Numbered from the stretch's first letter, positions 10,490 to 25,632 are shown. The stretch: 32,000 nucleotides of DNA from Copranaerobaculum intestinale (GCF_009831105.1 NZ_WUUQ01000006.1:60001-92000); one strand, 5' to 3'. Numbers and translations are program-made. The notes: generated by a model not told the origin, from the sequence alone.

Positions 10490-10492
10490 AGG

Positions 10493-12022
10493 TTATACCT
10501 CCTTTAATGTACAAGTATGTTCAACTGCCGCTAACAGGGATCCGTCATGGATCATGTCGGCAATCTGATGAATAAATGGATAGAATACCGTATCCTCTTC
10601 AAAGAACGGCACGGCCTTGCGAATGGTTTCGTAGGCTGGCTGAGTACCTTTTCCGAGTTTTCCGTTTTCCTGCAAATCAATAGCCTGAGTACTGCACAGC
10701 ATTTCCATTGCCAATACATCCTGAGTATTTTTCAGAATATCTTGCGCTTTGCGGGCAGCGATCGTTCCCATTGATACATGATCTTCCTGATTAGCACTGG
10801 ATGGAATGGAATCCACACTGGCCGGATGGGCGAGCACCTTGTTTTCAGAAACCAATGCCGCAGCCGCATACTGAACGATCATAAAGCCGGAGTTCAGGCC
10901 GCCCTTCGGCGTTAAGAAAGCGGGAAGATCATTGTTGAGCGCCGGATTGACCAAACGTTCCACACGGCGTTCTGCAATATTCGCCAGCTCGCTGATCGCA
11001 ATGCCTAAATAATCAAATGCCATCGCAACACTTTCGCCGTGGAAGTTGCCTCCGGATATCGCGTATTCATCTTCCACAAACAAAATGGGATTATCGGTTA
11101 CGGAGTTGATCTCAATTTCCAGCTTTTCAACGACATGGCGGATTGCATCCTTGCAGGCACCGTGTACCTGTGGCGCACAGCGAAGTACATAAGCATCCTG
11201 TACGCGTTTCTCTCCTTGATTGGTAATGCGTTCACTGCCGTCCAATAAATCTCTTACGTTATCCGCGGTGTGAATCTGCCCGCTATGCGGACGCACCGCG
11301 TGGACTCTTGCATCAAAGGCATCACGGATGCCTTCCAGCGCCTCCATGCTTAATGCCACCGATACATCGGCTAGCTTACTAGCCTGCAGTGCATCATAAG
11401 CGGTGATACAGCCAACTGCACACATAGCCTGCGTGCCATTGATCAGCGATAATCCCTCTTTGGCGCTTAATACGACCGGTTTGATGCCTGCCGCTTCCAT
11501 CGCTGCTTTTGAAGGCACCCTTTTTCCGTTCAGGAATGCTTCCCCTTCACCAATTAAAGTGAGCGCCATATGGGCAAGCGGACATAGGTCGCCGGACGCG
11601 CCCAAGCTGCCTTTCTCATATACCAAAGGATATACATCACGGTTCAGCATATTCACCAGGGTTTCTAAGGTGGAAAGCCGAATTCCGGAGAATCCTTGTG
11701 AAAGTGAGTTGATCCGCAGCAGCATCATCGCTCTTACGATTTCTTCGCTGAAGGGATCACCGACCCCAACCGCATGCGACATAATCAAATTGCGCTGCAG
11801 TTCTCCGGTTTCTTCTTTTGATATCAATGTATCGGAAAATTTACCGAAACCGGTTGTGATTCCATAACTTACCTTGCCCTGTTCGACAAAGTCTTTTACC
11901 ATTTGTTCCGCCTTGCGGATTTTTTCTTTTGCCTCATCGGATAAGGCAATTCTGCGGCGATTTCTCGCTACGTCAATTACATCATCCAAAACCAGATGAT
12001 GACCGTCTATCATCAATTCCAT
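10493..12022 (-). CDS. hutH: Histidine ammonia-lyase
   Basis: The GSLGASGDLCPLAH block contains the Ala-Ser-Gly triad that forms the MIO cofactor. I prefer the ATG at 12022 (MELMIDGHH...) because AAGGAG (12031-12036, minus strand) lies 8 nt upstream. The listed 12085 start adds 21 unsupported residues. Confidence 0.92.
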   Translation of the reverse strand: MELMIDGHHLVLDDVIDVARNRRRIALSDEAKEKIRKAEQMVKDFVEQGKVSYGITTGFGKFSDTLISKEETGELQRNLIMSHAVGVGDPFSEEIVRAMMLLRINSLSQGFSGIRLSTLETLVNMLNRDVYPLVYEKGSLGASGDLCPLAHMALTLIGEGEAFLNGKRVPSKAAMEAAGIKPVVLSAKEGLSLINGTQAMCAVGCITAYDALQASKLADVSVALSMEALEGIRDAFDARVHAVRPHSGQIHTADNVRDLLDGSERITNQGEKRVQDAYVLRCAPQVHGACKDAIRHVVEKLEIEINSVTDNPILFVEDEYAISGGNFHGESVAMAFDYLGIAISELANIAERRVERLVNPALNNDLPAFLTPKGGLNSGFMIVQYAAAALVSENKVLAHPASVDSIPSSANQEDHVSMGTIAARKAQDILKNTQDVLAMEMLCSTQAIDLQENGKLGKGTQPAYETIRKAVPFFEEDTVFYPFIHQIADMIHDGSLLAAVEHTCTLKEV

Positions 12023-12110
12023 AATATCAGCTCCTTTAGCTTTTATTATACTTGTTTTTAGGCCGGATTGACAGTGGGAAACCACAGGAAAATCACTGCG
12101 AATTTACGGG

Positions 12111-12125
12111 ATCATAAATTATGAT
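12111..12125. promoter_or_regulatory. Palindromic candidate operator ATCATAA-A-TTATGAT (copy 1) in the hutH/GRE divergent region
   Basis: Perfect 7-bp arms around one central nucleotide. The core CATAAATTATG recurs at 12230-12240. Confidence 0.35.
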
Positions 12126-12229
12126 AAAAATTTTGTATTTAAGTGTTCATTTATGTTCGATTTGCGGATTTATGTGGTCTGTAATCAAATTATTTTGTCA
12201 TATATATGTTCGGTTTCATAGGATAACAC

Positions 12230-12240
12230 ATAAATTATGA
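12230..12240. promoter_or_regulatory. Palindromic candidate operator CATAA-A-TTATG (copy 2)
   Basis: Identical 11-nt core to copy 1, about 117 bp away. It lies immediately upstream of the TTGACG -35-like hexamer (12248-12253) in front of the GRE gene. Confidence 0.3.
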
Positions 12241-12302
12241 ATGCCTATTGACGGTAAATGTTTGATTGTGTTACTTTGAAATCGTAAAAGGAGGAATACC
12301 CT

Positions 12303-14720
12303 ATGAAATGTTTAAGTTTTCAGCCTAAAAATAACGACTGCGATTTTGAGCGCATCGCACGTTTTCAGAAAGACATGAATATACGTACTGCTACCCTTTG
12401 TGCCGAACGTGCCGAGATCATCACGCGTTCGTTTCAGGAAACAGAAGGAGAGCCGATCGTAATTCGCCGTGCCAAGGCGTTTGCGGATATCTTGAAAGAA
12501 ATGACCATCTATATTCAGAAAGATTCCTTGATTATCGGCAATCAAGCCTGCCGTAATTTTGCGGCTCCGGTTTTCCCGGAATATTCCTATGATTGGGTAA
12601 TTGAGGAAATGGATGAATTTGCGCACCGCAGCGGTGACAGCTTTCAGGTTGATGAAGCTACGAAACAGCGGCTCCGTGCTTTAGAGGGCTATTGGATCGG
12701 CAAGACGCATAAGGATGAAGTATTGAAAAATCTTCCTTTGATCAATCGTGAAGCGGAAAAACAGAGTGTATTGCATCGGGGCGGCATCAGTATGTCCGGT
12801 GACGGCCATATTATCCCTAATCATGATTTTGTGTTGAAATATGGTTTTGGCGGTATGCGTGATATAGCGAAAGAGAAGCTGACACATGACGATCTTACCG
12901 AAGAACAGCGTGATTTTTATCAGGCATCGATACTTGCGATGGAGGGTGCTTTAACGTATATCAAGCGTTTTTCTGAGCTGGCGCTTCAGGAAGCAAAGCA
13001 CTGTACTGATGAAAAACGTGCCAAAGAGCTGGAAGCACTTGGTGAAATGTTTGCGACCTTCATGGAAGGCGGCGCCCGCAGTTTCCATGAAGCGGTTGAG
13101 GCAGTATATATGACACACCTGCTGATGATGATTGAAAGCAATGGACATTCTTTCTCTTTCGGGCGGTTTGATCAGTATGTCTGGCCGTATTATCAAGCAG
13201 ATATTGAATCTGGAAAACTCTCAAAAGAGAAAGCGCTGGAAATCATAACGCATTTCTTTATCATGACAAATTCTTTGAATAAGATTCGTCCATGGGATCA
13301 TACCCAGTACAGCGGCGGCTATCCGTTGTATTCCAATCTGATGGTCAGCGGCTTAAAGCCAAACGGAGAGGATGGAACCAATGATATTTCCTACCTGTGT
13401 TTAGAAGCGATGAATTTATCCATGCTTCCTGAGCCAAACTTATCTGTACGCTTTCATGAGCATACTCCGCATTCTTTGATGAAGGATGCGGCGAAGCTGA
13501 TCCGCAAAGGATTCGGCATGCCTTCAATTTTCTGCGATGAAGTATGCATTCCGGCGATGCAGTCACTGGGACTTGATTTAGCGGTAGCCCGCGATTATGC
13601 GTCAATGGGCTGTGTCGAAACGGCGATTCCGGGACGCTGGGGACATCGCGCAACCGGCATGACCTATGTGAATTTCGGAAAAATTCTGGAGCTTGTCATG
13701 AATAATGGTATGGATCCGGAAAGCGGAGTCCAGCTGGTGAAGCTGAACGGTGAACCCGGCCGTGACATCCACTATGAAAGTTATGAGGAAATCTGGCAGG
13801 CTTGGGAAAAGCTGCTTGCGTTCTATACCGGTTTGGCGGTGGACTGCGATCTGGTCTGTGATCGTTCCTTAAAGTATCATGATGCGGATGCATTTGCTTC
13901 CTGTACGGTAAACAGCTCCTTAGCGCGCGGTAAAACCTTGAAAAACGGCGGTGCAGAATATGACTATGTATCCAGCTCCAGCATCGGAATGTCGGTGGTC
14001 GGCGATTCCTTGGCGGCCATCAAAAAGCTGGTCTTTGAGGACAAGAAACTGACCTTGCAGCAGATCCGCGATGCGATGGATCACAATTTTGAAGGCCTGG
14101 AAGGCGCGAAGATTCGAAAGCTTTGCAAGCAGGCACCGAAATTCGGCAATGATGATGACTATGTCGATGAAATTGTTGCGGATGTTTATGAATCCTATCT
14201 GAAGCTGCTGCCGAGCTTTAAAACAGATCGTTATGGAAAAGGCCCAATCGGCTGTACCTATACGATGTCAACATCCAACATCACCTCCTATGTGCCGAAC
14301 GGCTTTGAAGTAGGGGCAACCCCGGACGGCCGTTTAGCTACCAAACCGCTGAACGAAGGGGCATCACCTTGCCTAGGCGCTGATAAAGAGGGACCGACGG
14401 CTGTGATCAATTCCATTTCCAAGCTGCCTAATAAGCGCATGGCGGGAGGACAGCTGCTGAATATGCGCTTCTCTCCGAATGCGTTGGACGGTGAAGAAAA
14501 CTTAGAGAAATTTACCCGGTTCATGGAAGCGGGACGTAACAAGAATATTTTTCATAATCAATTTAATATCGTTGACTCGGAAACCTTGAAAAAGGCCAAA
14601 GCACATCCGGAAGAATATCCGGATCTGATGGTGAGAGTAGCCGGCTATTGCGCGTTATTCTCAACCCTGATGCCGGAAGCGCAGGATGCGATCATCGCAC
14701 GGACGGAACTGAGCTGGTAA
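12303..14720 (+). CDS. Glycyl radical enzyme, PFL-like superfamily, eliminase (dehydratase/lyase) class; PflD/YbiW-like context
   Basis: 805 aa. C-terminal glycyl-radical motif MVRVAGY (Gly781, nt 14643-14645). Cys loop MGCVETA (Cys437 at nt 13611-13613, Glu439), not the Cys-Cys pair of pyruvate formate-lyase. Conserved blocks include IESNGHSFSFGRFDQY, PNLSVRFH, KFGNDDDYVD and TPDGR. RBS GGAGG lies 8 nt upstream. Confidence 0.92.
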   Translation: MKCLSFQPKNNDCDFERIARFQKDMNIRTATLCAERAEIITRSFQETEGEPIVIRRAKAFADILKEMTIYIQKDSLIIGNQACRNFAAPVFPEYSYDWVIEEMDEFAHRSGDSFQVDEATKQRLRALEGYWIGKTHKDEVLKNLPLINREAEKQSVLHRGGISMSGDGHIIPNHDFVLKYGFGGMRDIAKEKLTHDDLTEEQRDFYQASILAMEGALTYIKRFSELALQEAKHCTDEKRAKELEALGEMFATFMEGGARSFHEAVEAVYMTHLLMMIESNGHSFSFGRFDQYVWPYYQADIESGKLSKEKALEIITHFFIMTNSLNKIRPWDHTQYSGGYPLYSNLMVSGLKPNGEDGTNDISYLCLEAMNLSMLPEPNLSVRFHEHTPHSLMKDAAKLIRKGFGMPSIFCDEVCIPAMQSLGLDLAVARDYASMGCVETAIPGRWGHRATGMTYVNFGKILELVMNNGMDPESGVQLVKLNGEPGRDIHYESYEEIWQAWEKLLAFYTGLAVDCDLVCDRSLKYHDADAFASCTVNSSLARGKTLKNGGAEYDYVSSSSIGMSVVGDSLAAIKKLVFEDKKLTLQQIRDAMDHNFEGLEGAKIRKLCKQAPKFGNDDDYVDEIVADVYESYLKLLPSFKTDRYGKGPIGCTYTMSTSNITSYVPNGFEVGATPDGRLATKPLNEGASPCLGADKEGPTAVINSISKLPNKRMAGGQLLNMRFSPNALDGEENLEKFTRFMEAGRNKNIFHNQFNIVDSETLKKAKAHPEEYPDLMVRVAGYCALFSTLMPEAQDAIIARTELSW

Positions 14721-14722
14721 GT

Positions 14723-15631
14723 ATGGTACAGGGACGAGTTTCCAAACTCCAGCGTTATGCGACCAAGGATGGACCGGGCCTTCGCACGACCGTATTTATG
14801 ACCGGATGCAACCTTCGCTGTAAATGGTGTGCCAATCCGGAGATGCTGAATGCAAAGGGCGGTATGTTCTATTATAAGGAACGCTGTCAGCACTGTGGAA
14901 TTTGTGTCCAGATGGCGGCTTTGGGAACGATCACATTTGCGGAAATCGGATGTGCAATCGACCGGGAACACTGCGGTGATCTGGAGCCGATCAAGGACGC
15001 TTGTCCGTTTGAAGCTTATGAAAGCACCAGTCAGCTCATGGACTGTGAAACGCTGGTGCATAAGCTGCTACGGGATCGTGAATTCTATGAGAACAGCAAT
15101 GGCGGAGTTACCTTCTCCGGCGGAGAAGCCGGACTGCAGGATGATTTTCTGTATGCGTGTGCCGCCAAGCTGCGCCAAGCGGGCATCCATACCGCTTTGG
15201 ATACGGCAGGATTGCTGGAGCCTCAAAGATTGTTAAGGCTTTGTCAGGTATTTGATTTGGTGCTGTATGACATCAAAGCATTTGACGCGGATATTCATAA
15301 ACGTTGTACCGGTGTTGACAATACTTTGATTTTAGAAAATGCCAAGCTGCTGTGTAAACAAAAGATGCCGATGATCGTACGGATGATCGTTGTGCCTGGC
15401 ATGAATGATGATCCCGCGGACATAACCGCCCGCCTGCAATTCGTGAAATCCTTGGGATCAAGTGTGAAACAGGTCGATTTACTGCCTTATCATAACCTTG
15501 GCGAAGGAAAATATGATAAACTTGGTATGACATATGAATTACATGATATTGGAAAAATGAGTGATGAACGCATGGAAGCCATCAAGCAGGAAGGTCAAAA
15601 GCTCGGCCTGCATATGACGATCGGCGGATAA
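14723..15631 (+). CDS. Glycyl-radical-enzyme activating enzyme (radical SAM)
   Basis: The ATG lies 2 nt after the GRE stop. CNLRCKWC (Cys29/33/36, nt 14807-14830) is the CX3CX2C radical-SAM motif. A Cys-rich ferredoxin-like insert follows (CQHCGICV ... CAIDREHCGDLEPIKDACP). The listed 14648 start overlaps the GRE and is unsupported. Confidence 0.9.
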   Translation: MVQGRVSKLQRYATKDGPGLRTTVFMTGCNLRCKWCANPEMLNAKGGMFYYKERCQHCGICVQMAALGTITFAEIGCAIDREHCGDLEPIKDACPFEAYESTSQLMDCETLVHKLLRDREFYENSNGGVTFSGGEAGLQDDFLYACAAKLRQAGIHTALDTAGLLEPQRLLRLCQVFDLVLYDIKAFDADIHKRCTGVDNTLILENAKLLCKQKMPMIVRMIVVPGMNDDPADITARLQFVKSLGSSVKQVDLLPYHNLGEGKYDKLGMTYELHDIGKMSDERMEAIKQEGQKLGLHMTIGG

Positions 15632-15646
15632 CTGGAGGGAATGGAC

Positions 15647-16321
15647 ATGAAATTATTATTGGATACAGCGAATTTAGAAGACATCAAAGAGGGGATGGAG
15701 TACTATCCCATGATCGGCGTTACGACGAATCCTTCGATCTTAGCGAAAAGCGGCGAGCCGATGTTTGACCATCTGCGGAAAATCCGTCAGATCATCGGCA
15801 GAGATAAGCTGTTATTTGCCCAGGTAATGGGTGAAACCTATGAGGAAATGATGGCGGATGCGAAACGCATGGTGGAAGAGGTCGATGAGGATCTGCACAT
15901 CAAGGTGCCGATGACGCAGGAGGGCCTGAAAGCGATCAAGGCGATGAAAGCCCAGGGCTATAAAGTGCTGGCCACAGCGGTATTCTCTGCCCAGCAAGCG
16001 ATGCTTGCGGGAGCGGCCGGAGCCGATTTTGTCGCACCGTATATCTCCCGGATGATGCAGGCGGGCATGGATGCCTATGCGATCATTGAGGAGATTGCGA
16101 TCGCCTATGAAGAACACAGCATCGAAACCAAGATCATTGCGGCCTCTTTTAAGCATAGTGTGCAGGTTGAAAAATGTATTTTGGCAGGTTCTCCTTACAT
16201 TACCGCTACGCTGCCGATCTATAAGCAGATGCTGGCAGAACCGCTGACCGATGTTGCGGTCAAAGGATTTCAGAGTGACTGGCAGAATGCTTTTGATGGC
16301 GTGCTGCCGCACAAAATGTAA
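15647..16321 (+). CDS. fsa: Fructose-6-phosphate aldolase-type enzyme (transaldolase family 3B, FSA subtype)
   Basis: Collinear with E. coli FSA as I recall it. Numbered from the ATG at 15647 it has Asp6 (LLLDTA), Gln59 (LFAQVM), the Schiff-base Lys86 (HIKVP) and Tyr132 (VAPYISR). GGAGG (15634-15638) is 8 nt from 15647 but only 2 nt from the listed 15641 ATG. Confidence 0.85.
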   Translation: MKLLLDTANLEDIKEGMEYYPMIGVTTNPSILAKSGEPMFDHLRKIRQIIGRDKLLFAQVMGETYEEMMADAKRMVEEVDEDLHIKVPMTQEGLKAIKAMKAQGYKVLATAVFSAQQAMLAGAAGADFVAPYISRMMQAGMDAYAIIEEIAIAYEEHSIETKIIAASFKHSVQVEKCILAGSPYITATLPIYKQMLAEPLTDVAVKGFQSDWQNAFDGVLPHKM

Positions 16322-16327
16322 CAGCTA

Positions 16328-16367
16328 AAACGGCAGGATGTCAAAAAGTGACATCAGCCGTTTTTTT
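16328..16367 (+). terminator. Rho-independent terminator ending the GRE-activase-fsa operon
   Basis: ACGGCAGGATGTCA / TGACATCAGCCGT stem (one bulge) followed by TTTTTTT. Confidence 0.75.
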
Positions 16368-16394
16368 ATATTCTTGTAGTCGGTAAAAAAAGCG

Positions 16395-16403
16395 TGCTAT
16401 AAT
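16395..16403 (+). promoter_or_regulatory. Extended -10 promoter element (TGCTATAAT) for the LevR-like regulator gene
   Basis: TGnTATAAT match about 40 nt upstream of the ATG at 16445. Confidence 0.45.
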
Positions 16404-16444
16404 GCAGATACAAAAATTTGATACACGAGCGGAGGACGGTCGAT

Positions 16445-19150
16445 ATGAAAAATGAAGAGAAAATCTATCTGGGCCTGTGTGAGCTGAGTGAAAAAGCAAT
16501 TGCTTCATTGAGCGACGGCGTTACCACCAGTGAATTGGCAGATCATTTAAAAATGGATCGGACTCTGGTTTCCCGCCACTTGGGAGTGCTGGTACAAGCA
16601 GGAAAAGCGGTAAAAGCAGGAAGCAAACCGATTTATTACCGCAGTTCTTCCAGCGTTCCCGCTTCCGATGCAGTGAAAACCGATGTTTTTGCCCAGCTGA
16701 TCGGTTTTAACGGTTCGCTGTTGACCGCGGTAGAGCAGTGTAAATCCTCGGTGCTGTATCCCAATGGCGGACTGCCGCTTTTGATTACCGGCTCCAGCGG
16801 TGTCGGCAAGAGTTATCTGGCCAACCTGATTTTTGAATATGCAAAGAATGAGGGAATCATTGAAAAGGATGCAAAATGTGTGATCTTTAACTGCGCTGAT
16901 TACGCCAACAACAAGGAGCTGCTTTCCAGTAAGCTGTTCGGTTATAAAAAAGGAACCTTTACCGGAGCGGATGAAGATAATGATGGTGTGATCGCGCTGG
17001 CCGACGGCGGTTATCTCTTTTTGGATGAAGTACACCGGTTGTCTCCCGAGGGTCAGGAAAAGCTGTTCCTGCTGCTGGATAAGGGAATTTATCAGCGCAT
17101 GGGTGATAAAAATTATCAAAGTGTGCAGGTACGAGTGATCGCGGCAACAACCGAGGATCCGAAAACTGCCCTGATCGACACTTTTCTGCGCCGGATCCCG
17201 ATTCAGGTGCATCTGCCTGATTTTGCATCGCGAAACATCAGTGAGCGGCTGGAGTTGATACAGCTGTTTTATGCCCAGGAGAGTCAGACCTTTCATAAGT
17301 CGATTCGAATATCAAAGAAGGTTGTGAACTACCTTTTATCCTGCGCGCTGCTTGGCAATATCGGTGCGCTTCGCAATATCATCAAGGTGAGCTGTGCCAA
17401 CGCTTCACGCAAAAATCGGGAAGCGCTGGTGCAAGTGGATATTGAAGATATTGCCCGGGAGCTTCCTCAGCATGTCGAAGTGCATGAGTTCACCAGCGCC
17501 GATTTAGAAATCGGCAGCAGCTTCGCAAGATCGCCGATCACGCCTTCCTCACTTCCGAATGTGAAGGAGGTCATTGATATCATTACCGATATTTACGAAC
17601 AGCTGAAAGCATGTCAGCGGCTCGCCATCAGTGAAGAGGAAGTAGAAAAATGCATTCGTTTGGATGTGAACCGTATTTCTGACGTGCTGTATTTTCATTC
17701 TAATAACAATGCCCAATCACTGTACTATTCATTATTCGCAACCCATGTGGAAAACGGCCTGAAGCTGTTGGAAAAGACATACGGCTTGAAATATTATGGC
17801 AATACGGTGAAAACCTTAAGCAGTGTATTAAATACCTTCAGTAAGGAACCGCTGTTTCAAAGCGATGAATATGTAGCGCTGTACCGCAAGACTTTAGAGT
17901 TGATCAAACATCGCAGCTATAAATATAATTTCGTTACCAACCGACTGCTGGAATATCTGCGCGATTCCTTTCATTATCAGTACGGAGTTTTAGAAGAGCT
18001 GTATTTGACGCTGTATATTTATTCATCGGTAGTCGATCATCACAGCGATATCAATGCAATCATCGTGGCTCACGGGTATTCTACCGCGAGCAGTATCGCC
18101 TCGGTCGTCAATCAGATGCACAGCAATTATATCTTTGAATCGTTTGATATGCCGATCGATATGGAACCGCAGGATATCGTTAAGGAAATCTGCGAATACG
18201 CAAAGCACTTAAATAAGGATAAGGATACGATATTCTTAGTGGATATGGGTTCGCTGTTTGAAATCTACTCATTGGTCAAGGACAGCTTTAACGGTGAAAT
18301 GGTTGTTATTAACAACATTACGACGCAGCTGGCTCTGGGGGTGGGAAGCATGATCAATCAGGGCCGCAGTCTGATTGATATCGTGGACAGTGTTGTGCGG
18401 GACTGCTCGATCAAATACAAGTATTTTGAACGCAAGGGCAAAAAGCGGGCAATCGTCACTACCTGCGCATCCGGAATCGGCATTGCCAATAAAATACGCG
18501 ATATGATTAAAAAGTGTGTGGCCGGAGAGAAACAGAATATTGAAATAATTTCCTGTGATTATTTCACCCTGAAAAATATGGGCCGCAACAGTGAAATATT
18601 TAAAAAATATGATGTGCAGCTGATTATCTCGACCTTAGGCTTAACCATCGAGGGTGTATCTACTATTTTATTTTCTGATTTGTTCTCCCAGAAAAATGAA
18701 GAACGAGTACGGGATGTATTCGCAAAGCTGTACGGAGAAGAGAACCTGCATCAGATCATCAACAATCTCATGAAGATGCTGACGCTGGAAAATATCATTT
18801 CCCGCTTGATCATATTGAATCCCAACCGAGTGATCGAAAATGTCGATGCGATCCTCAGCGACATTGAAAACTGCTTTGCTTATCAGCTTGATTCCAGTTT
18901 AAAGCTGACGCTATACATTCATATCGCGATCATGCTGGAACGGTGTATCCTATCCCGTAACGAGCTGCAGGAGCAGCCCTACAGCGGGAAAGAAAGCGTT
19001 GCGGATATCAATAAGATGCGCCGTATCTTTGAAAAACAGCTGACAGACTTCGAAGTACATATTCCCGATCATGAGCTTGCCCTTGTTTTAAGTATCATCA
19101 AGGAGTATGACAACACTGCGGCAGCTTCGTTATCGGATGAGGATGAATAA
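16445..19150 (+). CDS. LevR-type sigma-54-dependent transcriptional activator with PTS regulation domains
   Basis: N-terminal wHTH, then an AAA+ domain: Walker A GSSGVGKS, Walker B YLFLDEVHRL, and the sigma-54 contact loop GTFTGA (residues 170-175, nt 16952-16969). Downstream are PRD-like regions, an EIIA-Man-like segment (AIIVAHGYSTASS), an EIIB-Gat-like Cys segment (AIVTTCASGIG) and a second PRD (YIHIAIMLER). I prefer the ATG at 16445 because GGAGGA lies 9 nt upstream. Confidence 0.88.
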   Translation: MKNEEKIYLGLCELSEKAIASLSDGVTTSELADHLKMDRTLVSRHLGVLVQAGKAVKAGSKPIYYRSSSSVPASDAVKTDVFAQLIGFNGSLLTAVEQCKSSVLYPNGGLPLLITGSSGVGKSYLANLIFEYAKNEGIIEKDAKCVIFNCADYANNKELLSSKLFGYKKGTFTGADEDNDGVIALADGGYLFLDEVHRLSPEGQEKLFLLLDKGIYQRMGDKNYQSVQVRVIAATTEDPKTALIDTFLRRIPIQVHLPDFASRNISERLELIQLFYAQESQTFHKSIRISKKVVNYLLSCALLGNIGALRNIIKVSCANASRKNREALVQVDIEDIARELPQHVEVHEFTSADLEIGSSFARSPITPSSLPNVKEVIDIITDIYEQLKACQRLAISEEEVEKCIRLDVNRISDVLYFHSNNNAQSLYYSLFATHVENGLKLLEKTYGLKYYGNTVKTLSSVLNTFSKEPLFQSDEYVALYRKTLELIKHRSYKYNFVTNRLLEYLRDSFHYQYGVLEELYLTLYIYSSVVDHHSDINAIIVAHGYSTASSIASVVNQMHSNYIFESFDMPIDMEPQDIVKEICEYAKHLNKDKDTIFLVDMGSLFEIYSLVKDSFNGEMVVINNITTQLALGVGSMINQGRSLIDIVDSVVRDCSIKYKYFERKGKKRAIVTTCASGIGIANKIRDMIKKCVAGEKQNIEIISCDYFTLKNMGRNSEIFKKYDVQLIISTLGLTIEGVSTILFSDLFSQKNEERVRDVFAKLYGEENLHQIINNLMKMLTLENIISRLIILNPNRVIENVDAILSDIENCFAYQLDSSLKLTLYIHIAIMLERCILSRNELQEQPYSGKESVADINKMRRIFEKQLTDFEVHIPDHELALVLSIIKEYDNTAAASLSDEDE

Positions 19151-19171
19151 TGTCACACATAATCTATTAAG

Positions 19172-19210
19172 CTGTCACAGATGATGAAAAGTGATGTTTA
19201 TCTGTGACAG
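19172..19210. promoter_or_regulatory. Candidate upstream activating sequence: perfect 10-bp inverted repeat CTGTCACAGA-N19-TCTGTGACAG
   Basis: The arms at 19172-19181 and 19201-19210 are exact reverse complements. A third TGTCACA half-site lies at 19151-19157. The repeat sits about 50-110 bp upstream of the -24/-12 promoter. Confidence 0.5.
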
Positions 19211-19216
19211 GTAATG

Positions 19217-19246
19217 AAAAAAGACCGATAAAATCGGCCTTTTTCA
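19217..19246 (+). terminator. Terminator-like hairpin after the regulator gene
   Basis: AAAAAGACCGAT-AAA-ATCGGCCTTTTT with one internal mismatch, flanked by an A-run and a T-run. Confidence 0.45.
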
Positions 19247-19260
19247 TCTTTTCAGCGAGT

Positions 19261-19276
19261 TGGCATGTTTTTTGCT
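19261..19276 (+). promoter_or_regulatory. Sigma-54 (-24/-12) promoter
   Basis: TGGCATG-TTTT-TTGCT matches TGGCAC-N5-TTGC with exact spacing (TGGCA at 19261, TTGC at 19272). It lies 28 nt upstream of the EIIA ATG and directly downstream of a sigma-54 activator gene. Confidence 0.8.
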
Positions 19277-19303
19277 TCAATATAGGCAGAAAGGAGAAAT
19301 TCT

Positions 19304-19720
19304 ATGTACAGTATCATCGTTATGAGCCATGGGGACATGGCAAACGGGCTGAAAGACACGATGATGATGATCCTCGGGGAACAGGAGGATATCTATTTTA
19401 TCAGTTTCACGCCAAGTGACAGTATCGAGGATTTTCGTAAACGGGTAAATGTTATTTATCATTCGATCGAGGAAGACAGACAGGTGCTGTTTCTTACCGA
19501 TCTATACGGGGGAACACCCAACCATGTGGCAACCGCTATGAAAATCGCTGAGCCGGGTCGAGTAGAGGTGCTCAGCGGCGTGAATATGCCTTTACTGATG
19601 GAAGCAACATTAGGAAAAGCGAAAGTTCTGAGTGACATTGTCGAGCACTTATTAGAGCAGGGACGCGGAGGCATGATCCGCATTGAGCCTGCCCTTGATC
19701 AAAACGAAGAGGATGAATAA
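19304..19720 (+). CDS. PTS mannose/fructose/sorbose-family EIIA component
   Basis: 138 aa starting MYSIIVMSHGDMANGL (the phospho-His region). RBS AAGGAG is present. Confidence 0.88.
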   Translation: MYSIIVMSHGDMANGLKDTMMMILGEQEDIYFISFTPSDSIEDFRKRVNVIYHSIEEDRQVLFLTDLYGGTPNHVATAMKIAEPGRVEVLSGVNMPLLMEATLGKAKVLSDIVEHLLEQGRGGMIRIEPALDQNEEDE

Positions 19721-19739
19721 TTAAGAAGGAGGAAGTTTC

Positions 19740-20522
19740 ATGGAAATTTCATTTTTGCAGATCATCTTGTTATCTGCATATGGTTTCATCGCTATCTGGG
19801 ATGACTTGAATCCCGGATTCAAATTAGGTAAACCGGTTGTTGCCGGAATGTTTGCCGGTCTCATCATGGGTGATATCCAAATGGGTCTGTTGGTCGGCGG
19901 TACGCTGCAGCTGATGATTCTGGGTGTCGGCACATATGGCGGTGCATCCATTCCCGATTATATGACCGGTGCCGTAGTAGGTACTGCCTTCGCAGTTTCT
20001 TCCGGAAAAGGTCTGGAGTATGCGCTGGCAATCGCTGTTCCGGTGGGGCTGTTGATGGTTCAGCTGGATGTATTGGGAAGATTTTGTAATACTTATTTCC
20101 AACATATGGCGGATAAAGGCGCTGAGCAGCGCAACTACCGCAAGGTGGAACTGGGCAATGTGCTCGGTATGATTCCCTGGGGGCTGTCCCGTGCCCTGCC
20201 GATATTCCTGGCACTGTTCTTCGGACAGGATATTGTAAAAACTTTACTGGATAATTCTCCTGAATGGCTGATGAACGGCTTAAAGACAGCCGGCGGTCTG
20301 CTGCCTGCGTTAGGTATTGCCATTCTGCTGCGCTACATGCCGTTAAAGACATACTGGATGTATGCCATTGCCGGCTTCGTAGCTGCTACGTATTTGAAGG
20401 TGCCGATGCTGGGTGTAGCCCTTGTCGGTCTGGTTGCTGCCGGCGTTGCTTACGCACGTTCGGATGAACCGGCGGTGTCAGCTGTAGTAAATGAAGGAGG
20501 TACGATCGAAGATGATGAATAA
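19740..20522 (+). CDS. PTS mannose-family EIIC component
   Basis: 260-aa polytopic membrane protein with a typical ManY/AgaC-like N-terminus (ILLSAYGFIAIWD). RBS GGAGG is present. Confidence 0.88.
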   Translation: MEISFLQIILLSAYGFIAIWDDLNPGFKLGKPVVAGMFAGLIMGDIQMGLLVGGTLQLMILGVGTYGGASIPDYMTGAVVGTAFAVSSGKGLEYALAIAVPVGLLMVQLDVLGRFCNTYFQHMADKGAEQRNYRKVELGNVLGMIPWGLSRALPIFLALFFGQDIVKTLLDNSPEWLMNGLKTAGGLLPALGIAILLRYMPLKTYWMYAIAGFVAATYLKVPMLGVALVGLVAAGVAYARSDEPAVSAVVNEGGTIEDDE

Positions 20523-21321
20523 TAGTAATGTCTGTGATAAAAAAATTCGTCGTAAGGTGTTCCTGCGTTGGTTCTTAAACGGTGAATCAGGCTGGAACTA
20601 TGAAAAAATGCAGGGCTCTGGATACTGCTATTCTATGATGCCGGCATTAAAAGAAATCTATAAGGATGATCCGGATGCGCTTCAGGCTGCGGTAAAAAAT
20701 CATCTTCAGTTCTTCAACACAACGCCGCATACAGCCAATATTATTTTAGGTGTCAACATGGCGGTTGAACAAACCGTGAAACAGGACGGTAAAGATGCTA
20801 TTGCCAGTATCAAAACCGGTCTGATGGGTCCGTTAGCCGGAGTTGGCGACTCCTTATTCGGAGTAATCATTGATACTGTATTAGGCTCTATCGCTGCTTA
20901 TATGGCCCTGGAAGGCAATCCGATGGGATGTTTGATCTGGGTATTGGTCAGTGCGATCGGCATTACGGCACTGCGCTATGCTATGCTGGAAATCGGTTAT
21001 AAGCAAGGTACCGATGTCGTTGCGAATATCTCTACTAAAATGAAAAAGATTACGGAAGCTGCCAGCATCCTCGGTCTGACGGTTGTCGGCGCTTTGATCC
21101 CTACCGTAGTCAATGCGAAGGTACCCTATGTATTTGAATGGGGAAAAGTAAAAATGCCGGTTCAGGATATGATCGATTCGATCATGCCAAACCTGCTTCC
21201 GGTACTGTTTGTCGTATTGATTTATTGGCTGCTGTCGAAAAAAGGAATGAATTCCACAAGAGTGATTATTTTCATTATCGTATTTGCGATTTTGTTCAAC
21301 TTCTTAGGAATTCTTGGATAA
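20512..21321 (+). CDS. PTS mannose-family EIID component
   Basis: ManZ-like motifs (FLRWFLNGESGWNYEKMQGSGYCYSMMP, FFNTTPH). The ATG at 20512 lies 11 nt after GGAGG (20496-20500) and overlaps the EIIC stop by 11 nt. Confidence 0.88.
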   Translation: MMNNSNVCDKKIRRKVFLRWFLNGESGWNYEKMQGSGYCYSMMPALKEIYKDDPDALQAAVKNHLQFFNTTPHTANIILGVNMAVEQTVKQDGKDAIASIKTGLMGPLAGVGDSLFGVIIDTVLGSIAAYMALEGNPMGCLIWVLVSAIGITALRYAMLEIGYKQGTDVVANISTKMKKITEAASILGLTVVGALIPTVVNAKVPYVFEWGKVKMPVQDMIDSIMPNLLPVLFVVLIYWLLSKKGMNSTRVIIFIIVFAILFNFLGILG

Positions 21322-21324
21322 TGT

Positions 21325-21804
21325 ATGGAAGGTATCGTACACGTAAGAATTGATGACCGTCTGCTGCATGGACAAGTCTGTGCCTTTTGGTCAAATGCCC
21401 TTAAGTTAACAAGAATTATGGTGGCAAATGATGAGGTTGCCGTCGATGAAATGCAGAAGTCGGTACTGCGCATGGCGGCGCCTGCCGGCGTCCGTACATC
21501 CTTGATTTCACTGGAAAAAGCTTCTGCCAACATTCTGGCGGAGAAATACAAGGGACAGCGCGTACTGCTGATTTTAAAAAGCCCGAAAGATGCTTTGCGC
21601 TTAATCGAGATGGGTTTGCCGATCAAGTCGCTCAATGTCGGCAATATGGCAAACCGCCCGGATACGACCCAGTATAAACGTTCTATCTCACTGACAAAAT
21701 CGGAATACGATGACTTCATGAAACTGCATGAGCTGGGAGTTCAAATGACGGCACAGATGGTTCCAGAGGAAGCGGTCAGTGATCTGATGGAGTTCCTGAA
21801 ATAA
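21325..21804 (+). CDS. PTS mannose-family EIIB component
   Basis: 159 aa with VRIDDRLLHGQV, the phospho-His motif of EIIB-Man. Confidence 0.88.
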   Translation: MEGIVHVRIDDRLLHGQVCAFWSNALKLTRIMVANDEVAVDEMQKSVLRMAAPAGVRTSLISLEKASANILAEKYKGQRVLLILKSPKDALRLIEMGLPIKSLNVGNMANRPDTTQYKRSISLTKSEYDDFMKLHELGVQMTAQMVPEEAVSDLMEFLK

Positions 21805-21821
21805 AAAAGAAAGGAAAGATC

Positions 21822-22535
21822 ATGAGAAATATCGGAAAACAATTTAATGATGCAATTATCAACTGTTTGGAGCATATCGCTGACGGACAGGAAGAAGCAA
21901 TCGCAAAAGCGGCGGAAATCATCGCCGATACGATTGAAAACGGGGGCATTGTGCAGTCGTTTGGTTCGGGACACAGCTATGGCAATGCGCTGGAGATCAG
22001 CGGCCGTGCCGGCGGTTTCATCCAGACGAAAATTATCAATGAGCCGTCCCGCGGAAACTATGAGATGATCGAAGGAGTCGGTACGATTTTTATGAACCAT
22101 CTCGATCTGCAGGTACAGGACTGCTTGATTATCATTTCCAATTCCGGACGTAATCCGTTGGGGATTGAAATGGCAATGGCGGCGAAAAAAATGGGCGTCA
22201 AGCTGATCGTCGTCACTGCTTATGATGTTGCTTCCCATTCAACATCCCGCCATTCAAGCGGTAAAATGCTGCATGAATTTGCGGATGTTATTCTGGATAA
22301 CAAGTCAATTTTCGGGGATGCCTGCATCGAAGTAGCGGGACTGCCGGTGAAAGTCGGAGGTACTTCGCTGTATACCGGAAGCATGCTGTTAGACCGGGCA
22401 ACGATGGATGCGATTGATATCCTGCTGGAACGAGGTGTGACACCGCCGCTGTTTATGAGTGCCAATGTGGATGGCGGACCGCAGTTCAACCAGAAATATC
22501 TGGATATGTATAAAGATCGTCTTCGCCGTTATTAA
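21822..22535 (+). CDS. SIS (sugar isomerase) domain protein, small single-domain type (UPF0309-like)
   Basis: 237 aa. The SFGSGHSYGNALE and IIISNSGRNP blocks are typical of SIS phosphosugar-binding folds. RBS GAAAGGAAAG is present. It is the last gene of the sigma-54 operon. Confidence 0.75.
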   Translation: MRNIGKQFNDAIINCLEHIADGQEEAIAKAAEIIADTIENGGIVQSFGSGHSYGNALEISGRAGGFIQTKIINEPSRGNYEMIEGVGTIFMNHLDLQVQDCLIIISNSGRNPLGIEMAMAAKKMGVKLIVVTAYDVASHSTSRHSSGKMLHEFADVILDNKSIFGDACIEVAGLPVKVGGTSLYTGSMLLDRATMDAIDILLERGVTPPLFMSANVDGGPQFNQKYLDMYKDRLRRY

Positions 22536-22541
22536 AGGATC

Positions 22542-22570
22542 AAGAGGAACGGGAGTTCCTCTTTCTTTTA
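22542..22570 (+). terminator. Rho-independent terminator ending the PTS-SIS operon
   Basis: AAGAGGAAC-GGGA-GTTCCTCTT followed by a T-rich tract. Confidence 0.75.
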
Positions 22571-22701
22571 CCCTATTATGAAGTAGGAAATAGCTGAAAA
22601 GCTTCATGATATGATTAGCTATGACGATCATAAAGGGCGAATGATTCAACCTTTTTATGAATTGAGCATGCTGAACATATTGTGCCGGGATGCGTACCGC
22701 A

Positions 22702-22737
22702 TGGTATATACACGGGATAAGTAATGAATATTCATTA
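22702..22737 (+). promoter_or_regulatory. Extended -10 (TGGTATATA) followed by a perfect 16-bp palindrome TAATGAATATTCATTA (candidate operator) upstream of cutC
   Basis: TGnTATATA at 22702-22710. The palindrome at 22722-22737 is exactly self-complementary and sits between the -10 element and the RBS. Confidence 0.4.
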
Positions 22738-22755
22738 GGAAAGAAGGTTAACGAC

Positions 22756-23499
22756 ATGAAAGAAAAAATAATTGAAATTTGCTGCGTGAATTATAAAGAC
22801 TGCATCCATGCTGAAATGTGCGGAGCGGATCGCATTGAATTGTGCGCATCCATGGCGGCCGGCGGACTGACCCCGTCGCTGGGTGTATTTCAAATGGTAA
22901 AGGAGCATGTCCATATCCCAGTCATGGTCATGATTCGTCCCCGCGGTGCTGGCTTCTGTTATCATGATTATGAGTTTGAGATCATGAAAAGGGATACGGA
23001 AATTTTTTTAAGCAATGGCGCCGAAGGGTGTGTCTTCGGTATCCTGAATGCGGATAAGACAGTTGATCTGACACGTACTGAGGAACTTGCGGCAATCATT
23101 CATAAATACGGAAAGGAAGCGGTATTTCACCGTGCCTTTGATGAATGCCCAAATAAAGAACAAGCCATTCAGGAATTGATCGCATGCGGAATCGATCGGA
23201 TCCTAACTGCGGGCGGTCAGGGAAATGCGGATGAGCATCTGGATGACTTAAAGCGCTGGCAGGATACATATGGTGAACAGATACAGCTTCAGGTATGCGG
23301 CAGTATCCGCAGTCATAATGCCATGTCTATTATGAAGCAAATTGGCTTTGATCAAGTTCATTCCGCCTGCCGCAGCTTTCATCAGGACGCCAGCGATGAA
23401 CCGGCACAGAATTTGGGTTATCACAATGCGTATGATTGTGTCGATGAAACAGAATGCCGGCGTTTTGTGGACAGCCTGCGTAAGTCATGCGGTTGTTAA
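22756..23499 (+). CDS. cutC: CutC-family TIM-barrel protein (annotated in databases as copper homeostasis protein; biochemical role unclear)
   Basis: The N-terminus EICCVNYKDCIHAEMCGADRIELC and the blocks VMIRPRGAGFCY and RILTAGG are typical of the CutC family. The ATG at 22756 is preceded by GGAAAGAAGG. Confidence 0.75.
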   Translation: MKEKIIEICCVNYKDCIHAEMCGADRIELCASMAAGGLTPSLGVFQMVKEHVHIPVMVMIRPRGAGFCYHDYEFEIMKRDTEIFLSNGAEGCVFGILNADKTVDLTRTEELAAIIHKYGKEAVFHRAFDECPNKEQAIQELIACGIDRILTAGGQGNADEHLDDLKRWQDTYGEQIQLQVCGSIRSHNAMSIMKQIGFDQVHSACRSFHQDASDEPAQNLGYHNAYDCVDETECRRFVDSLRKSCGC

Positions 23500-23550: not shown

Positions 23551-24345
23551 ATGCAGGCAGCACAGCGGCGAATGGAAATTTTTGATGATCTGCAGCGTAA
23601 TAAAACGGTGGAGGTCAATGCTTTAGCGAATCATTACAAGGTGACACCGATGACCATTCGCCGGGATTTGGCAATTTTTCAGAAACAGGGATTGGTCACA
23701 ACCACATACGGCGGCGCTTATCTAAATCAGGGTGCAGCCGTGGAGCCTAATTTTGCCTTAAAGAGCTCCCAGATGAAAGAGGGTAAGCAGTTGATCGCAA
23801 GAAGGGCGGCGTCTTTGGTGAATGAGGGGGAAACCGTTATCATCGACTGCGGTTCCACTGCTTATGAGCTGGCAAAGTATATAGCGCATATGAATATAAC
23901 GGTCATAACCAATTCACTGCCGGTCATGAATATCCTAAAGGATCATGAATCAATTAAGCTGATCATGGCTCCGGGACAATATAATCATGTATCTGCCGGT
24001 GCACTCAGCACATACACGCTAAGCTTTTATCAGGAGCTTCATGCGGACAAGGTCTTTATGTCCACACAGGGCTTTGATGAGCGCATCGGACTGAGCGTTC
24101 CGGATATGGAAGACGCGGCTGTAAAAAAAGCTATTCTGCAGGCAGCTCGGGAGAAAATTTTGTTAGCGGATATGTCTAAGTATAAACGGGAATATCTGGC
24201 AGTACACGCACAGCTGGAAGACTTCTCGATCATTGTGAATGACGGGAAATTTCCAATCGATGTTCAGCAGCGGCTGGAAGCAAAAAATATCCGCGTATAC
24301 ACCGTTGACCCTGATCATGATATGATCGGACTTTCATCTCGATGA
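23551..24345 (+). CDS. DeoR/GlpR-family transcriptional regulator
   Basis: N-terminal HTH (VNALANHYKVTPMTIRRDLAIF) plus a C-terminal sugar-phosphate sensor domain. TGATATAAT lies upstream. Confidence 0.88.
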   Translation: MQAAQRRMEIFDDLQRNKTVEVNALANHYKVTPMTIRRDLAIFQKQGLVTTTYGGAYLNQGAAVEPNFALKSSQMKEGKQLIARRAASLVNEGETVIIDCGSTAYELAKYIAHMNITVITNSLPVMNILKDHESIKLIMAPGQYNHVSAGALSTYTLSFYQELHADKVFMSTQGFDERIGLSVPDMEDAAVKKAILQAAREKILLADMSKYKREYLAVHAQLEDFSIIVNDGKFPIDVQQRLEAKNIRVYTVDPDHDMIGLSSR

Positions 24346-24426
24346 TCATGAGGATCTTTTAAAGCAATAAATCCATGTAGTCTATATCACAGAATTATGA
24401 TGACCAATTTGTAAAATAGCATAGTG

Positions 24427-24453
24427 AGCCGTTGAATCAAGACGGCTTTTTTA
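24427..24453 (+). terminator. Rho-independent terminator
   Basis: AGCCGT / ACGGCT stem followed by TTTTTT. Confidence 0.55.
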
Positions 24454-24501
24454 ATGTTTTAGAAACCTGATGAATATACTGTGGTGAAAGATGAGGTATT
24501 C

Positions 24502-25575: not shown

Positions 25576-25632
25576 GGATATGTTCACATCGACAGTCTCG
25601 TGATAAAATAACAGAAGAAAAGAGGGATCATC

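Follow-up and report, generated by a model that had tools for sequence, protein, structure and literature searches.

A YbiW-related glycyl radical enzyme clade and an adjacent, separable sigma-54-controlled PTS block in Copranaerobaculum intestinale

Which compound is broken down by a locus in which a glycyl radical enzyme (GRE), its activating enzyme and an FSA-type aldolase stand next to a complete mannose-family (Man-family) phosphotransferase system (PTS), and do these genes form one system? The locus in question occupies positions 12303–23499 of a 32,000-nucleotide stretch of the Copranaerobaculum intestinale genome (GCF_009831105.1, NZ_WUUQ01000006.1:60001–92000), and "the window" below always means this whole stretch. 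A preliminary description of the sequence had treated the GRE operon and the sigma-54/LevR-controlled Man-PTS and SIS genes as one joined system. Our analysis indicates instead that the joining is lineage-specific; fusion with a sigma-54 Man-PTS, the most striking feature of that description, is not conserved. We give about even chances to the overall picture presented here, in which the locus consists of two adjacent, separable catabolic modules, one of them an uncharacterised variant of radical "anhydroglycolysis" that would act on an amino-sugar-derived 6-phosphate.

The E. coli enzymes YbiW and PflD open 1,5-anhydroglucitol-6-phosphate (AG6P) and 1,5-anhydromannitol-6-phosphate (AM6P) to 1-deoxyfructose-6-phosphate, which aldolases split into glyceraldehyde-3-phosphate and hydroxyacetone, a route called anhydroglycolysis (PMC13450708, PMC12441222, summarising Ma et al. 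2024); according to a June 2026 review (one of these two), YbiW and PflD are the only sugar-phosphate GREs described. The reviews confirm the chemistry that the preliminary description had mentioned as a recent proposal, namely conversion of anhydrohexitol-6-phosphates to 1-deoxy-ketohexose-6-phosphates followed by FSA, and its account of the E. coli context was also correct when gene order was checked: ybiW-ybiY lies beside fsaA, and pflD-pflC beside frw, ptsA, fsaB and gldA. Systems of this kind, a GRE sugar-phosphate lyase plus FSA, have been known since 2024; the clade discussed below, its regulator and motif, and its amino-sugar partners were not found in the literature searched.

Genes in the window were called as six-frame open reading frames (ORFs) combined with Pfam and NCBIfam profile scans, and all genes of the preliminary description are present at or near where it had placed them. 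The features of the locus are as follows.

12144–12156, + strand: operator-like motif TGTTCATTTATGT, 147 nt upstream of the GRE start; candidate DeoR-family site, its binding predicted from sequence
12303–14720, + strand: GRE, 805 aa (Pfam PFL-like and Gly_radical)
14723–15631, + strand: GRE-activating radical SAM enzyme (AE), 302 aa (TIGR02494)
15641 (or 15647)–16321, + strand: FSA-type class I aldolase (Pfam TAL_FSA)
16330–16368, + strand: intrinsic terminator of the GRE-AE-FSA operon, a GC-rich hairpin followed by a T-run
16445–19150, + strand: LevR-type sigma-54 enhancer-binding protein with HTH, sigma-54 AAA+, EIIA-Man and PRD domains (Pfam)
19151–19210: three TGTCACA-type repeats, two direct and one inverted, with inverted repeats I1 and I2; putative site of upstream activation by the LevR-type protein
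19261–19276, + strand: sigma-54 (-24/-12) promoter TGGCATGTTTTTTGCT, the sole exact consensus match in the window
19304–19720, + strand: EIIA (Pfam EIIA-man)
19740–20522, + strand: EIIC (Pfam EII-Sor)
20512–21321, + strand: EIID (Pfam EIID-AGA)
21325–21804, + strand: EIIB (Pfam PTSIIB_sorb)
21822–22535, + strand: SIS_2 protein of the NagS/UPF0309 family (PRK02947), last gene of the PTS operon
22542–22563: terminator-like hairpin 3′ of the SIS gene, separating it from cutC
22756–23499, + strand: CutC-family TIM-barrel protein of the copper-homeostasis type (PF03932)
23551–24345, + strand: DeoR/AgaR-like repressor (Pfam HTH_DeoR and DeoRC)
24426–24448: terminator hairpin 3′ of DeoR

The terminators after the FSA, SIS and DeoR genes divide these genes into four transcription units: GRE-AE-FSA, levR, PTS-SIS and cutC-deoR. 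At this level the preliminary description holds well. The GRE, activase and FSA genes form one operon that ends in the hairpin and T-run at 16330–16368, an enhancer-binding protein with the four domains expected of a LevR-type regulator follows at 16445–19150, and an exact -24/-12 match at 19261–19276 precedes the EIIA-IIC-IID-IIB and SIS genes. Translation and independent gene calls place the activase start at 14723, not 14648, so that the gene begins three bases after the GRE stop, and the start of the LevR-type activator is placed at 16445 by the sequence and by independent gene calls. At least four independent metagenome assemblies show this gene order, and an assembly artefact is therefore excluded. 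No Rfam family matches anywhere in the window, hence there is no riboswitch.

The GRE matches PF02901 (626 bits) and PF01228 (100 bits), with the radical Gly781 in an RVAGY sequence, as is expected of the GRE superfamily. Its GCVET loop (Cys437-Val-Glu439) is invariant in the clade described below and aligns with C441/E443 of YbiW and C433/E435 of glycerol dehydratase; by this sequence signature it is a member of the Cys-x-Glu eliminase/isomerase group, whose loop has one catalytic Cys and a Glu serving as base. Only one NCBIfam cut-off is passed, that of the broad TIGR01774 "PFL2-3" subfamily. The PflD equivalog NF007437 gives 532 bits against a cut-off of 1109, and the equivalogs for HpsG/HpfG, choline lyase CutC, HypD, arylacetate decarboxylase and PflB give 165–521 bits against cut-offs of 994–1150. 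The best PDB match is YbiW (585 bits), followed by glycerol dehydratase (521), diol dehydratase (513) and PflD (464).

A protein search returned many homologues of the GRE at 72–79% identity in very different taxa, and 159 loci came from a scan of species-representative genomes; 80 of them were kept. The hosts are Enterobacteriaceae (Phytobacter, Klebsiella, Yokenella, Citrobacter, Pluralibacter), gut Erysipelotrichaceae, Lachnospiraceae, Christensenellaceae and Oscillospiraceae, together with Enorma, termite-gut Treponema, Pelolinea (Anaerolineae) and Negativicutes, so that the phyla include Firmicutes, Spirochaetes and Chloroflexi. In a MAFFT alignment the clade members are 59–78% identical to the window GRE; outside the clade, the values fall to 41% for the YbiW-like second GRE of two loci, 38% for YbiW, 37% for glycerol dehydratase and 34% for PflD. 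A neighbour-joining tree, which has few outgroups and carries no bootstrap or other support values, shows the clade as monophyletic and sister to the YbiW-like group. The clade and YbiW have in common an SGDxH segment, a WG[HY]R[AC]TGM segment after the Cys loop and a six-residue insertion before the TS..VP segment, all three of which are missing from PflD and glycerol dehydratase, and many invariant clade-specific substitutions distinguish the compared loops from those of YbiW. The low identity to all named GREs, the separate clade and the YbiW-type loops together argue that, as judged from sequence, the clade is a distinct, uncharacterised YbiW-like family. The earlier proposal of an uncharacterised eliminase/isomerase-type GRE distinct from YbiW and PflD thus agrees with the Cys-x-Glu loop, the subthreshold equivalog scores and the 38% and 34% identities, and phylogenetic placement, which that description had suggested as a check, puts the protein in its own clade beside the YbiW group and inside no named GRE family. 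Orthology with YbiW itself is ruled out by the 38% identity and the separate clade, the YbiW-like proteins being 52–53% identical to YbiW.

Clade members from different phyla are about 75% identical to one another, which suggests horizontal spread under strong constraint. A megablast search with the enterobacterial GRE cluster gave no match in 5,426 complete E. coli genomes, and a literature search found no characterised clade member and no precedent for a GRE acting with amino sugars. An AlphaFold model of the GRE built on a 10-sequence alignment had a predicted local distance difference test (pLDDT) score of 52.8, with the barrel core below 50, and was not used for the active site.

The two partners of the GRE in its operon fit the same kind of pathway. 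The activase scores 301 bits with TIGR02494, above its cut-off, carries the CNLRCKWC motif and ferredoxin-like Cys clusters, and is 32% identical to E. coli YbiY. The aldolase is 40% identical to E. coli FsaA and reaches 216 bits with TIGR00875, just under the cut-off of 246; its FAQV, IKVP and APYISR segments align with the corresponding FsaA segments. We take Gln59, Lys85 (the Schiff base) and Tyr131 of E. coli FSA to be the residues that mark this enzyme, and equivalents of all three are present, which by this residue criterion makes the protein a predicted FSA rather than a transaldolase. As in E. coli YbiW-YbiY-FsaA, then, GRE, activase and FSA-type aldolase are encoded together, the GRE has the Cys-x-Glu loop as well as the three loop features found otherwise in YbiW alone, and a PTS is expected to supply the 6-phosphate. 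Unlike YbiW, the GRE belongs to a separate monophyletic clade with loop substitutions of its own, and that clade has a cognate DeoR protein with its own conserved motif, recurrent NagA, NagB and AgaS partners, and members that sit beside YbiW-like or PflD GREs.

These partners emerged from a neighbourhood survey in which ORFs were called in 82 loci and the window and clustered by BLASTP; the clusters used for counting are family-level ones (minimum identity 25%, coverage 60%). Within 6 kb of 81 clade GREs we found the activase in 75 cases, DeoR in 55, FSA in 30, NagB-type proteins in 24, NagA-type proteins in 19, GldA in 11 and AgaS-like SIS proteins in 6, and amino-sugar enzymes occur within this distance in 34 of the 81 loci. 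DeoR, GRE and activase are the conserved core. The variable neighbours include Man-family PTS, glucose-family (Glc-family) PTS, ABC transporters with BadF/ROK-type kinases, and GH4 enzymes. The GRE-FSA linkage noted in the window thus recurs in the clade (30/81 loci). The NagB and NagA copies linked to the GRE score above the cut-offs of the nagB and nagA equivalogs, and in locus L097 (loci compared with the window are given as L numbers) the genes form a DeoR-GRE-AE-NagB-NagA-FSA operon with gaps of at most 12 nt. NagB-type and AgaS-like deaminases alternate between lineages, and this non-orthologous displacement suggests that a deaminase step is integral to the clade pathway.

Twelve of the NagB copies near clade GREs have FNMP in place of the canonical FNEP, that is, Met at the position of E. 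coli NagB Glu148, which we take to be part of the ring-opening triad; they come from L020, L022, L026, L029, L032, L035, L036, L039, L042, L045 (7231–7863), L049 and L075, and suggest a specialised NagB subfamily. The second NagB of L045 and the window NagB retain FNEP.

The clade GRE also occurs in the company of the characterised types. In Enterobacteriaceae (L001, L003–L017) the genes DeoR-GRE-AE-NagB-NagA lie between gldA and metF, at the locus that in E. coli holds pflD, frw, fsaB and gldA. The cluster, sometimes with a Glc-family EIICB, sits directly after fsaB-gldA of this PflD-type locus, with or without frw-pflD genes upstream in the fetched stretch, and it probably shares fsaB-gldA with it; in Phytobacter, Klebsiella and Yokenella fsaB-gldA adjoin the clade GRE and there is no frw-pflD within 10 kb upstream. 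The GRE-plus-aldolase-plus-PTS neighbourhood thus resembles that of E. coli PflD-PflC/frwCBD-ptsA-fsaB-gldA, the AM6P branch, from which the window differs in the 34% identity of its GRE, in the YbiW-type loops that PflD lacks, and in having a Man-family PTS under sigma-54 control where the PflD locus has a fructose-family PTS. In all, five enterobacterial loci have the clade GRE next to the PflD cluster, and two Oscillospiraceae metagenome-assembled genomes (MAGs) have it next to a YbiW-like GRE; this makes a substrate different from those of YbiW and PflD likely. In these two MAGs the YbiW-like GRE and the clade GRE stand side by side (L057, 4925–7405 on the − strand and 9989–12424 on the + strand; L041, 4989–7418 and 14568–17060); the YbiW-like proteins, 52–53% identical to YbiW, are accompanied by an ABC transporter and a ROK kinase, and the single activase visible may serve both GREs.

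The preliminary description had also placed a CutC-family gene and a DeoR gene after the PTS operon. Both are there, but DeoR is more than an additional gene. It is 50–55% identical to GRE-adjacent DeoR proteins of Erysipelotrichaceae, Christensenellaceae and Enterobacteriaceae, which makes it the cognate regulator of the GRE clade. DeoR directly follows FSA in L006 and L096; in the window the LevR-PTS-SIS-CutC block intervenes. The motif TGTTNNTTTATGT has 28 matches in the 1.41 Mb of 80 clade loci, against 1.6 expected, and 23 of these fall in the 3.4% of the sequence that consists of the roughly 350 nt preceding GRE or DeoR starts. The upstream matches span 18 loci of Enterobacteriaceae, Firmicutes and one spirochaete, with copies at about 8970–8990 in L003–L016, at 9925 and 9956 in L006, and further ones in L037, L046, L048, L051, L059, L060, L075 and L096. 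The window has a single exact copy, at 12144–12156, and none before its PTS, levR or cutC-deoR units. From this distribution TGTTNNTTTATGT is probably the operator of the clade's DeoR-family repressor. It replaces our first operator candidate, TATGTTCGRTTT, which occurs twice upstream of the GRE and has no match in any other locus.

How does the LevR/PTS block relate to this conserved core? The activator combines HTH, AAA+, PRD and EIIA-Man domains, and a GG-N10-GC element stands before its target operon; the promoter consensus TGGCAY-N5-TTGCW matches exactly once in the 32 kb (19261–19276, 28 nt before EIIA), and a -24/-12 element is conserved just upstream of EIIA in three other loci with an enhancer-binding protein and PTS (L006, L089 and L086). 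The TGTCACA-type repeats at 19151–19210 could be activator binding sites, since they are placed upstream of this promoter. The nearest NCBIfam model for the activator is DagR, with 447 bits against a cut-off of 1400, so that it is no orthologue of a characterised regulator. All four Man-family PTS components are present, and the models nearest to them are those of Aga, for N-acetylgalactosamine (GalNAc) and galactosamine (GalN), all of them below cut-off; no substrate-specific NCBIfam cut-off is reached by any component. An activator of this architecture with a -24/-12 promoter, followed by Man-family EIIA-D and then a sugar-phosphate processing enzyme, often of SIS type, is also the plan of the Bacillus subtilis LevR/lev operon and of Salmonella gfr (glucoselysine/fructoselysine) and dga (glucosaminate); unlike those, the block here has a NagS-like SIS_2 protein and CutC as processing enzymes and not levanase, deglycases or DgaE/DgaF.

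Comparison of related loci shows the block to be separable from the GRE. Close relatives of the window EIIA-D, LevR and SIS_2 proteins (66–89% identity, with the PTS proteins at 72–89%) were found only in L006, a syntenic Erysipelotrichaceae MAG, in which a LevR orthologue of 66% identity precedes the same PTS. The order in L006 is GRE-AE-FSA-DeoR-YtvI-epimerase-LevR-PTS, whereas the window has the block between FSA and DeoR. L096, whose GRE is 79% identical, has GRE-AE-FSA-DeoR-YtvI-epimerase without a LevR block and, upstream, a different Man-PTS with an AgaS-like SIS protein. In L089, a contig from the same sample, LevR-IIA-IIC-IID-IIB-SIS_2-MFS-aminotransferase-CutC occurs with no GRE within 10 kb. 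The different positions of the block and its absence from L096 mean that its joining to the GRE operon is lineage-specific, and the LevR/PTS/SIS/CutC block is a separable, separately regulated module. The proposed joining of GRE operon and sigma-54/LevR Man-PTS/SIS genes is accordingly not a general feature, as the block lies elsewhere in L006, is absent from L096 and does without a GRE in L089. The preliminary description had named non-conservation of the GRE-FSA-PTS linkage as a finding that would speak against it, and here the outcome is divided: the GRE-FSA part of the linkage is recurrent and the PTS part is not conserved.

What the block handles is indicated by its SIS protein, which had been tentatively described as an isomerase. 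It scores 244 bits with PRK02947, above the cut-off, and 147 bits with PDB 9EOL, the NagS protein SCO4393 of Streptomycetaceae; H53, R64, E94, D179 and N228 are identical in the two, S91 aligns to Asn, and a loop of about 10 residues is missing from the window protein. NagS dehydrates N-acetylglucosamine-6-phosphate (GlcNAc-6-P) to 6P-chromogen I, and H53, R64, E94 and D179 were shown to be essential (PMC12680351). Bona fide NagS is found in Streptomycetaceae only, at 58.7% identity or more, and homologues at 26–36% identity, the range seen outside that family, one of them from Clostridium, had no or negligible GlcNAc-6-P dehydratase activity (PMC12680351). The window protein thus has the NagS/UPF0309 (SIS_2) family assignment, the catalytic residues and an amino-sugar context in common with NagS, and falls below the 58.7% identity of true orthologues. 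The inactivity of the more distant homologues makes its substrate probably a different N-acetylhexosamine-6-phosphate (HexNAc-6-P) or a 3-O-substituted one. Homologues of 55–73% identity occur in a gnb-like GH35/Man-PTS/AgaS/NagA cluster, beside NanE under a sigma-54 activator, and next to glycosaminoglycan lyases and fucosidases. The protein belongs to a HexNAc-6-P dehydratase/etherase-like family and not to one of plain isomerases, and these contexts point to elimination or etherase chemistry on HexNAc-6-P rather than simple isomerisation. In L090 (4949–10711) a 73%-identical homologue lies in a Lac-family PTS operon with MupG, the 6-phospho-N-acetylmuramidase. By analogy with the murQ-murP-mupG operon of S. 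aureus it presumably occupies the place of the MurQ etherase, and may be a non-orthologous etherase for N-acetylmuramic acid 6-phosphate (MurNAc-6-P).

The last gene of the block, at 22756–23499, encodes the PF03932 TIM barrel of the copper-homeostasis protein, with 3IWP and 1TWD as best PDB matches; it has no GRE fold, and identity with the choline trimethylamine-lyase (TMA-lyase) of the same name is excluded. Copper-type CutC accompanies a Man-PTS and NagS-like SIS module in the window, in L044 (5703–6419) and in L089 (13112–13846), where an MFS transporter and an aminotransferase also lie beside it, a recurrence that hints at an enzyme of amino-sugar metabolism rather than a copper-handling protein. 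A literature search for such a role of copper-type CutC returned nothing relevant.

We therefore distinguish two modules. Module 1 (GRE, activase, FSA and the displaced DeoR) would be the local copy of a conserved anaerobic pathway. Module 2 (LevR, sigma-54 promoter, Man-PTS, NagS-like SIS and CutC) would be an uptake and first-processing unit for a HexNAc-type sugar, as suggested by the Aga-nearest PTS models, the NagS-family SIS protein with its catalytic residues kept, and the gnb-like, NanE and MupG contexts of its homologues; it would have been inserted between FSA and DeoR in the window lineage. Module 2 may deliver the 6-phosphate that Module 1 consumes. This is plausible because the GRE operon itself encodes neither a transporter nor a kinase, and because Man-PTS and SIS operons recur beside clade GREs: different Man-family PTS operons, 28–41% identical to that of the window and thus at paralogue level, lie next to clade GREs in several lineages.

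The alternative, that Module 2 is a self-contained HexNAc module inserted by chance and that the GRE receives its substrate through a transporter encoded elsewhere, has a serious chance of being right, if somewhat short of an even one. It bears on how the modules are linked, and on nothing else, and can be combined with either view of the GRE chemistry. The GRE-free block of L089, its different position in L006 and its absence from the L096 locus all favour such an accident, as does the regulation, with LevR and a -24/-12 promoter on one side, a DeoR motif upstream of the GRE only on the other, and terminators between all units. It leaves the GRE operon without a transporter or kinase, however, and does not account for the fact that the window and L006, though rearranged, both have no more than 7 kb between block and GRE, that Man-PTS and SIS-type operons lie beside clade GREs in L024, L044, L050, L078, L082 and L096, and that both modules independently point to amino-sugar chemistry.

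As to the chemistry of Module 1, the clade GRE travels with NagA-type, NagB-type or AgaS-type enzymes, and its most likely substrate is therefore derived from an amino sugar, such as the 2-amino or 2-acetamido counterpart of a 1,5-anhydrohexitol-6-phosphate, rather than AG6P or AM6P. The earlier expectation that the substrate differs from those of the E. coli enzymes is thus likely to be right, given the paralogues in the same loci, and the generic hexose or hexitol derivative then proposed gives way to an amino sugar, given the recurrent amino-sugar partners. In the proposed mechanism the activase would install the radical on Gly781, Cys437 would abstract the C2 hydrogen of a cyclic (ring-locked) hexose-derived 6-phosphate, and Glu439 would help to break the ring C1-O5 bond heterolytically, as happens in YbiW and PflD. 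This would give the acyclic 1-deoxy-ketose-6-phosphate or its 2-imine; FSA would split it into glyceraldehyde-3-phosphate plus hydroxyacetone, and the latter would be reduced by GldA where present. For an amino sugar the full sequence would be uptake and phosphorylation, deacetylation by NagA, ring opening by the GRE through a C2 alpha-amino radical to the 2-imine, imine hydrolysis by a specialised NagB or AgaS paralogue, and FSA. We offer this full amino-sugar scheme tentatively, as possible but doubtful in its entirety.

Several observations weigh against the picture as a whole. The window lineage has no GRE-linked NagA or NagB, and 34 of the 81 clade loci have neither FSA nor amino-sugar genes within 6 kb; these are notably Pelolinea and Negativicutes loci, whose GREs are about 60% identical to that of the window, have different neighbours and may differ in function. 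NagB- and AgaS-type deaminases normally need a free C1 aldehyde, which an anhydro or 1-deoxy sugar does not have, so that the imine-hydrolysis role assigned to them is ad hoc, and we know of no natural source of 2-amino- or 2-acetamido-1,5-anhydrohexitols. At 38% identity to YbiW the GRE may have the same function as YbiW or PflD. The PTS block is separately regulated, has no DeoR-type motif upstream and occurs without a GRE in L089. The partner counts, finally, are those of family-level clusters, and the tree is one without support values.

One competitor to the amino-sugar scheme is ordinary anhydroglycolysis, in which the clade GRE has the YbiW/PflD function or acts on another non-amino epimer such as 1,5-anhydrogalactitol-6-phosphate, making a 1-deoxy-ketose-6-phosphate for FSA, and the NagA and NagB neighbours elsewhere are coincidental or part of a mixed-sugar regulon. 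YbiW is after all the closest characterised relative, with its specific loops and the CxE motif kept in the clade; YbiW and PflD catalyse near-identical reactions although they are only 39% identical; and in the window lineage the set is the minimal one, GRE-AE-FSA-DeoR, without a dedicated NagA or NagB. Yet the place of the clade GRE beside PflD or YbiW-like paralogues in the same loci speaks for a different specificity, the amino-sugar enzymes stand close by in 34 of the 81 loci, tight operons included, and many loop positions carry invariant clade-specific substitutions against YbiW; we consider this explanation unlikely.

Less probable again is that the GRE is a 1,2-eliminase, a C-N lyase or dehydratase working on an amino-sugar or amino-alditol phosphate, for instance by expelling ammonia adjacent to a carbinol radical in the manner of choline TMA-lyase, with FSA acting on some other product. 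The CxE motif is common to all eliminases, the clade is as similar to glycerol dehydratase (37–41%) as to YbiW (38–41%), and amino-sugar genes near the GRE would suit such an enzyme. Against this stand the YbiW-specific loops of the clade and the co-occurring dedicated deaminases, which would be redundant with an ammonia-lyase; moreover, the obvious products of elimination, 2-deoxy or 3-keto sugars, are not FSA substrates by its known donor and acceptor rules. A small-diol (glycerol/1,2-propanediol) dehydratase acting on the C3 product of FSA and GldA is rejected on the active-site loops as highly improbable, for although the GRE is 37% identical to the C. butyricum enzyme with equivalents of its His164, Ser282, Tyr339 and Tyr640 conserved, and gldA adjoins the clade GRE in Enterobacteriaceae, Asp447 of the dehydratase aligns to Gly452, the Cys-loop region and the following loops have YbiW-type insertions and the YbiW-type sequence WGHRATGM, the cognate regulator is a DeoR/AgaR-type sugar-phosphate repressor, and no microcompartment or aldehyde-handling genes lie nearby.

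The clade would be a third sugar-phosphate GRE group beside YbiW and PflD, well delimited and widely distributed, and its NagA, NagB, AgaS, FSA and GldA partners raise the question of which amino-sugar-derived compound needs radical chemistry for its fermentation. Finding that substrate could add a nutrient niche to those known in anaerobic communities and bring substrates with nitrogen at C2 into GRE chemistry; if the amino-anhydro reading is true, this would be the first glycyl radical enzyme acting on an amino sugar, and would mean that gut and sediment habitats hold a natural pool of such compounds that has gone unrecognised. If the GRE duplicates the YbiW or PflD activity, the finding shrinks to the annotation of a widespread anhydroglycolysis variant. 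The locus also draws attention to non-Streptomyces NagS-like SIS proteins and to copper-type CutC in HexNAc contexts.

A distinct arrangement is seen in Christensenellaceae and their relatives (L026, L029, L032, L037 and L046), where the clade GRE is accompanied by a ribose-type ABC transporter, an SDR protein, a BadF-type kinase and NagB; L032, L037 and L046 add an oxidoreductase, of Gfo/Idh/MocA type as judged from the sequence without a profile search. Such loci suggest that the sugar is taken up unphosphorylated, may be a keto or anhydro sugar, and undergoes first reduction and then phosphorylation ahead of the radical step.

The genes on either side of the locus are of other kinds. A complete hut operon (hutH, hutU, glutamate formiminotransferase, hutI and FTCD_C cyclodeaminase) lies on the − strand at 5702–12085, divergent from the GRE operon; it is kept in the syntenic L006 and replaced in L096 by the Man-PTS/AgaS unit. 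The region 3′ of DeoR (24481–30145) begins with a YtvI-like AI-2E-family permease and a 286-aa aldose-1-epimerase-family protein, which from its size may be a hexose-6-phosphate mutarotase; both share synteny with the GRE core in L006 and L096. Beyond them come a canonical NagB and two Cof-type HAD sugar phosphatases. This NagB (26778–27548) was considered and rejected as a GRE-linked paralogue: it has the canonical NGHIGFNEP sequence, is 32–47% identical to the GRE-adjacent NagBs with which it was compared, and looks like a housekeeping copy.

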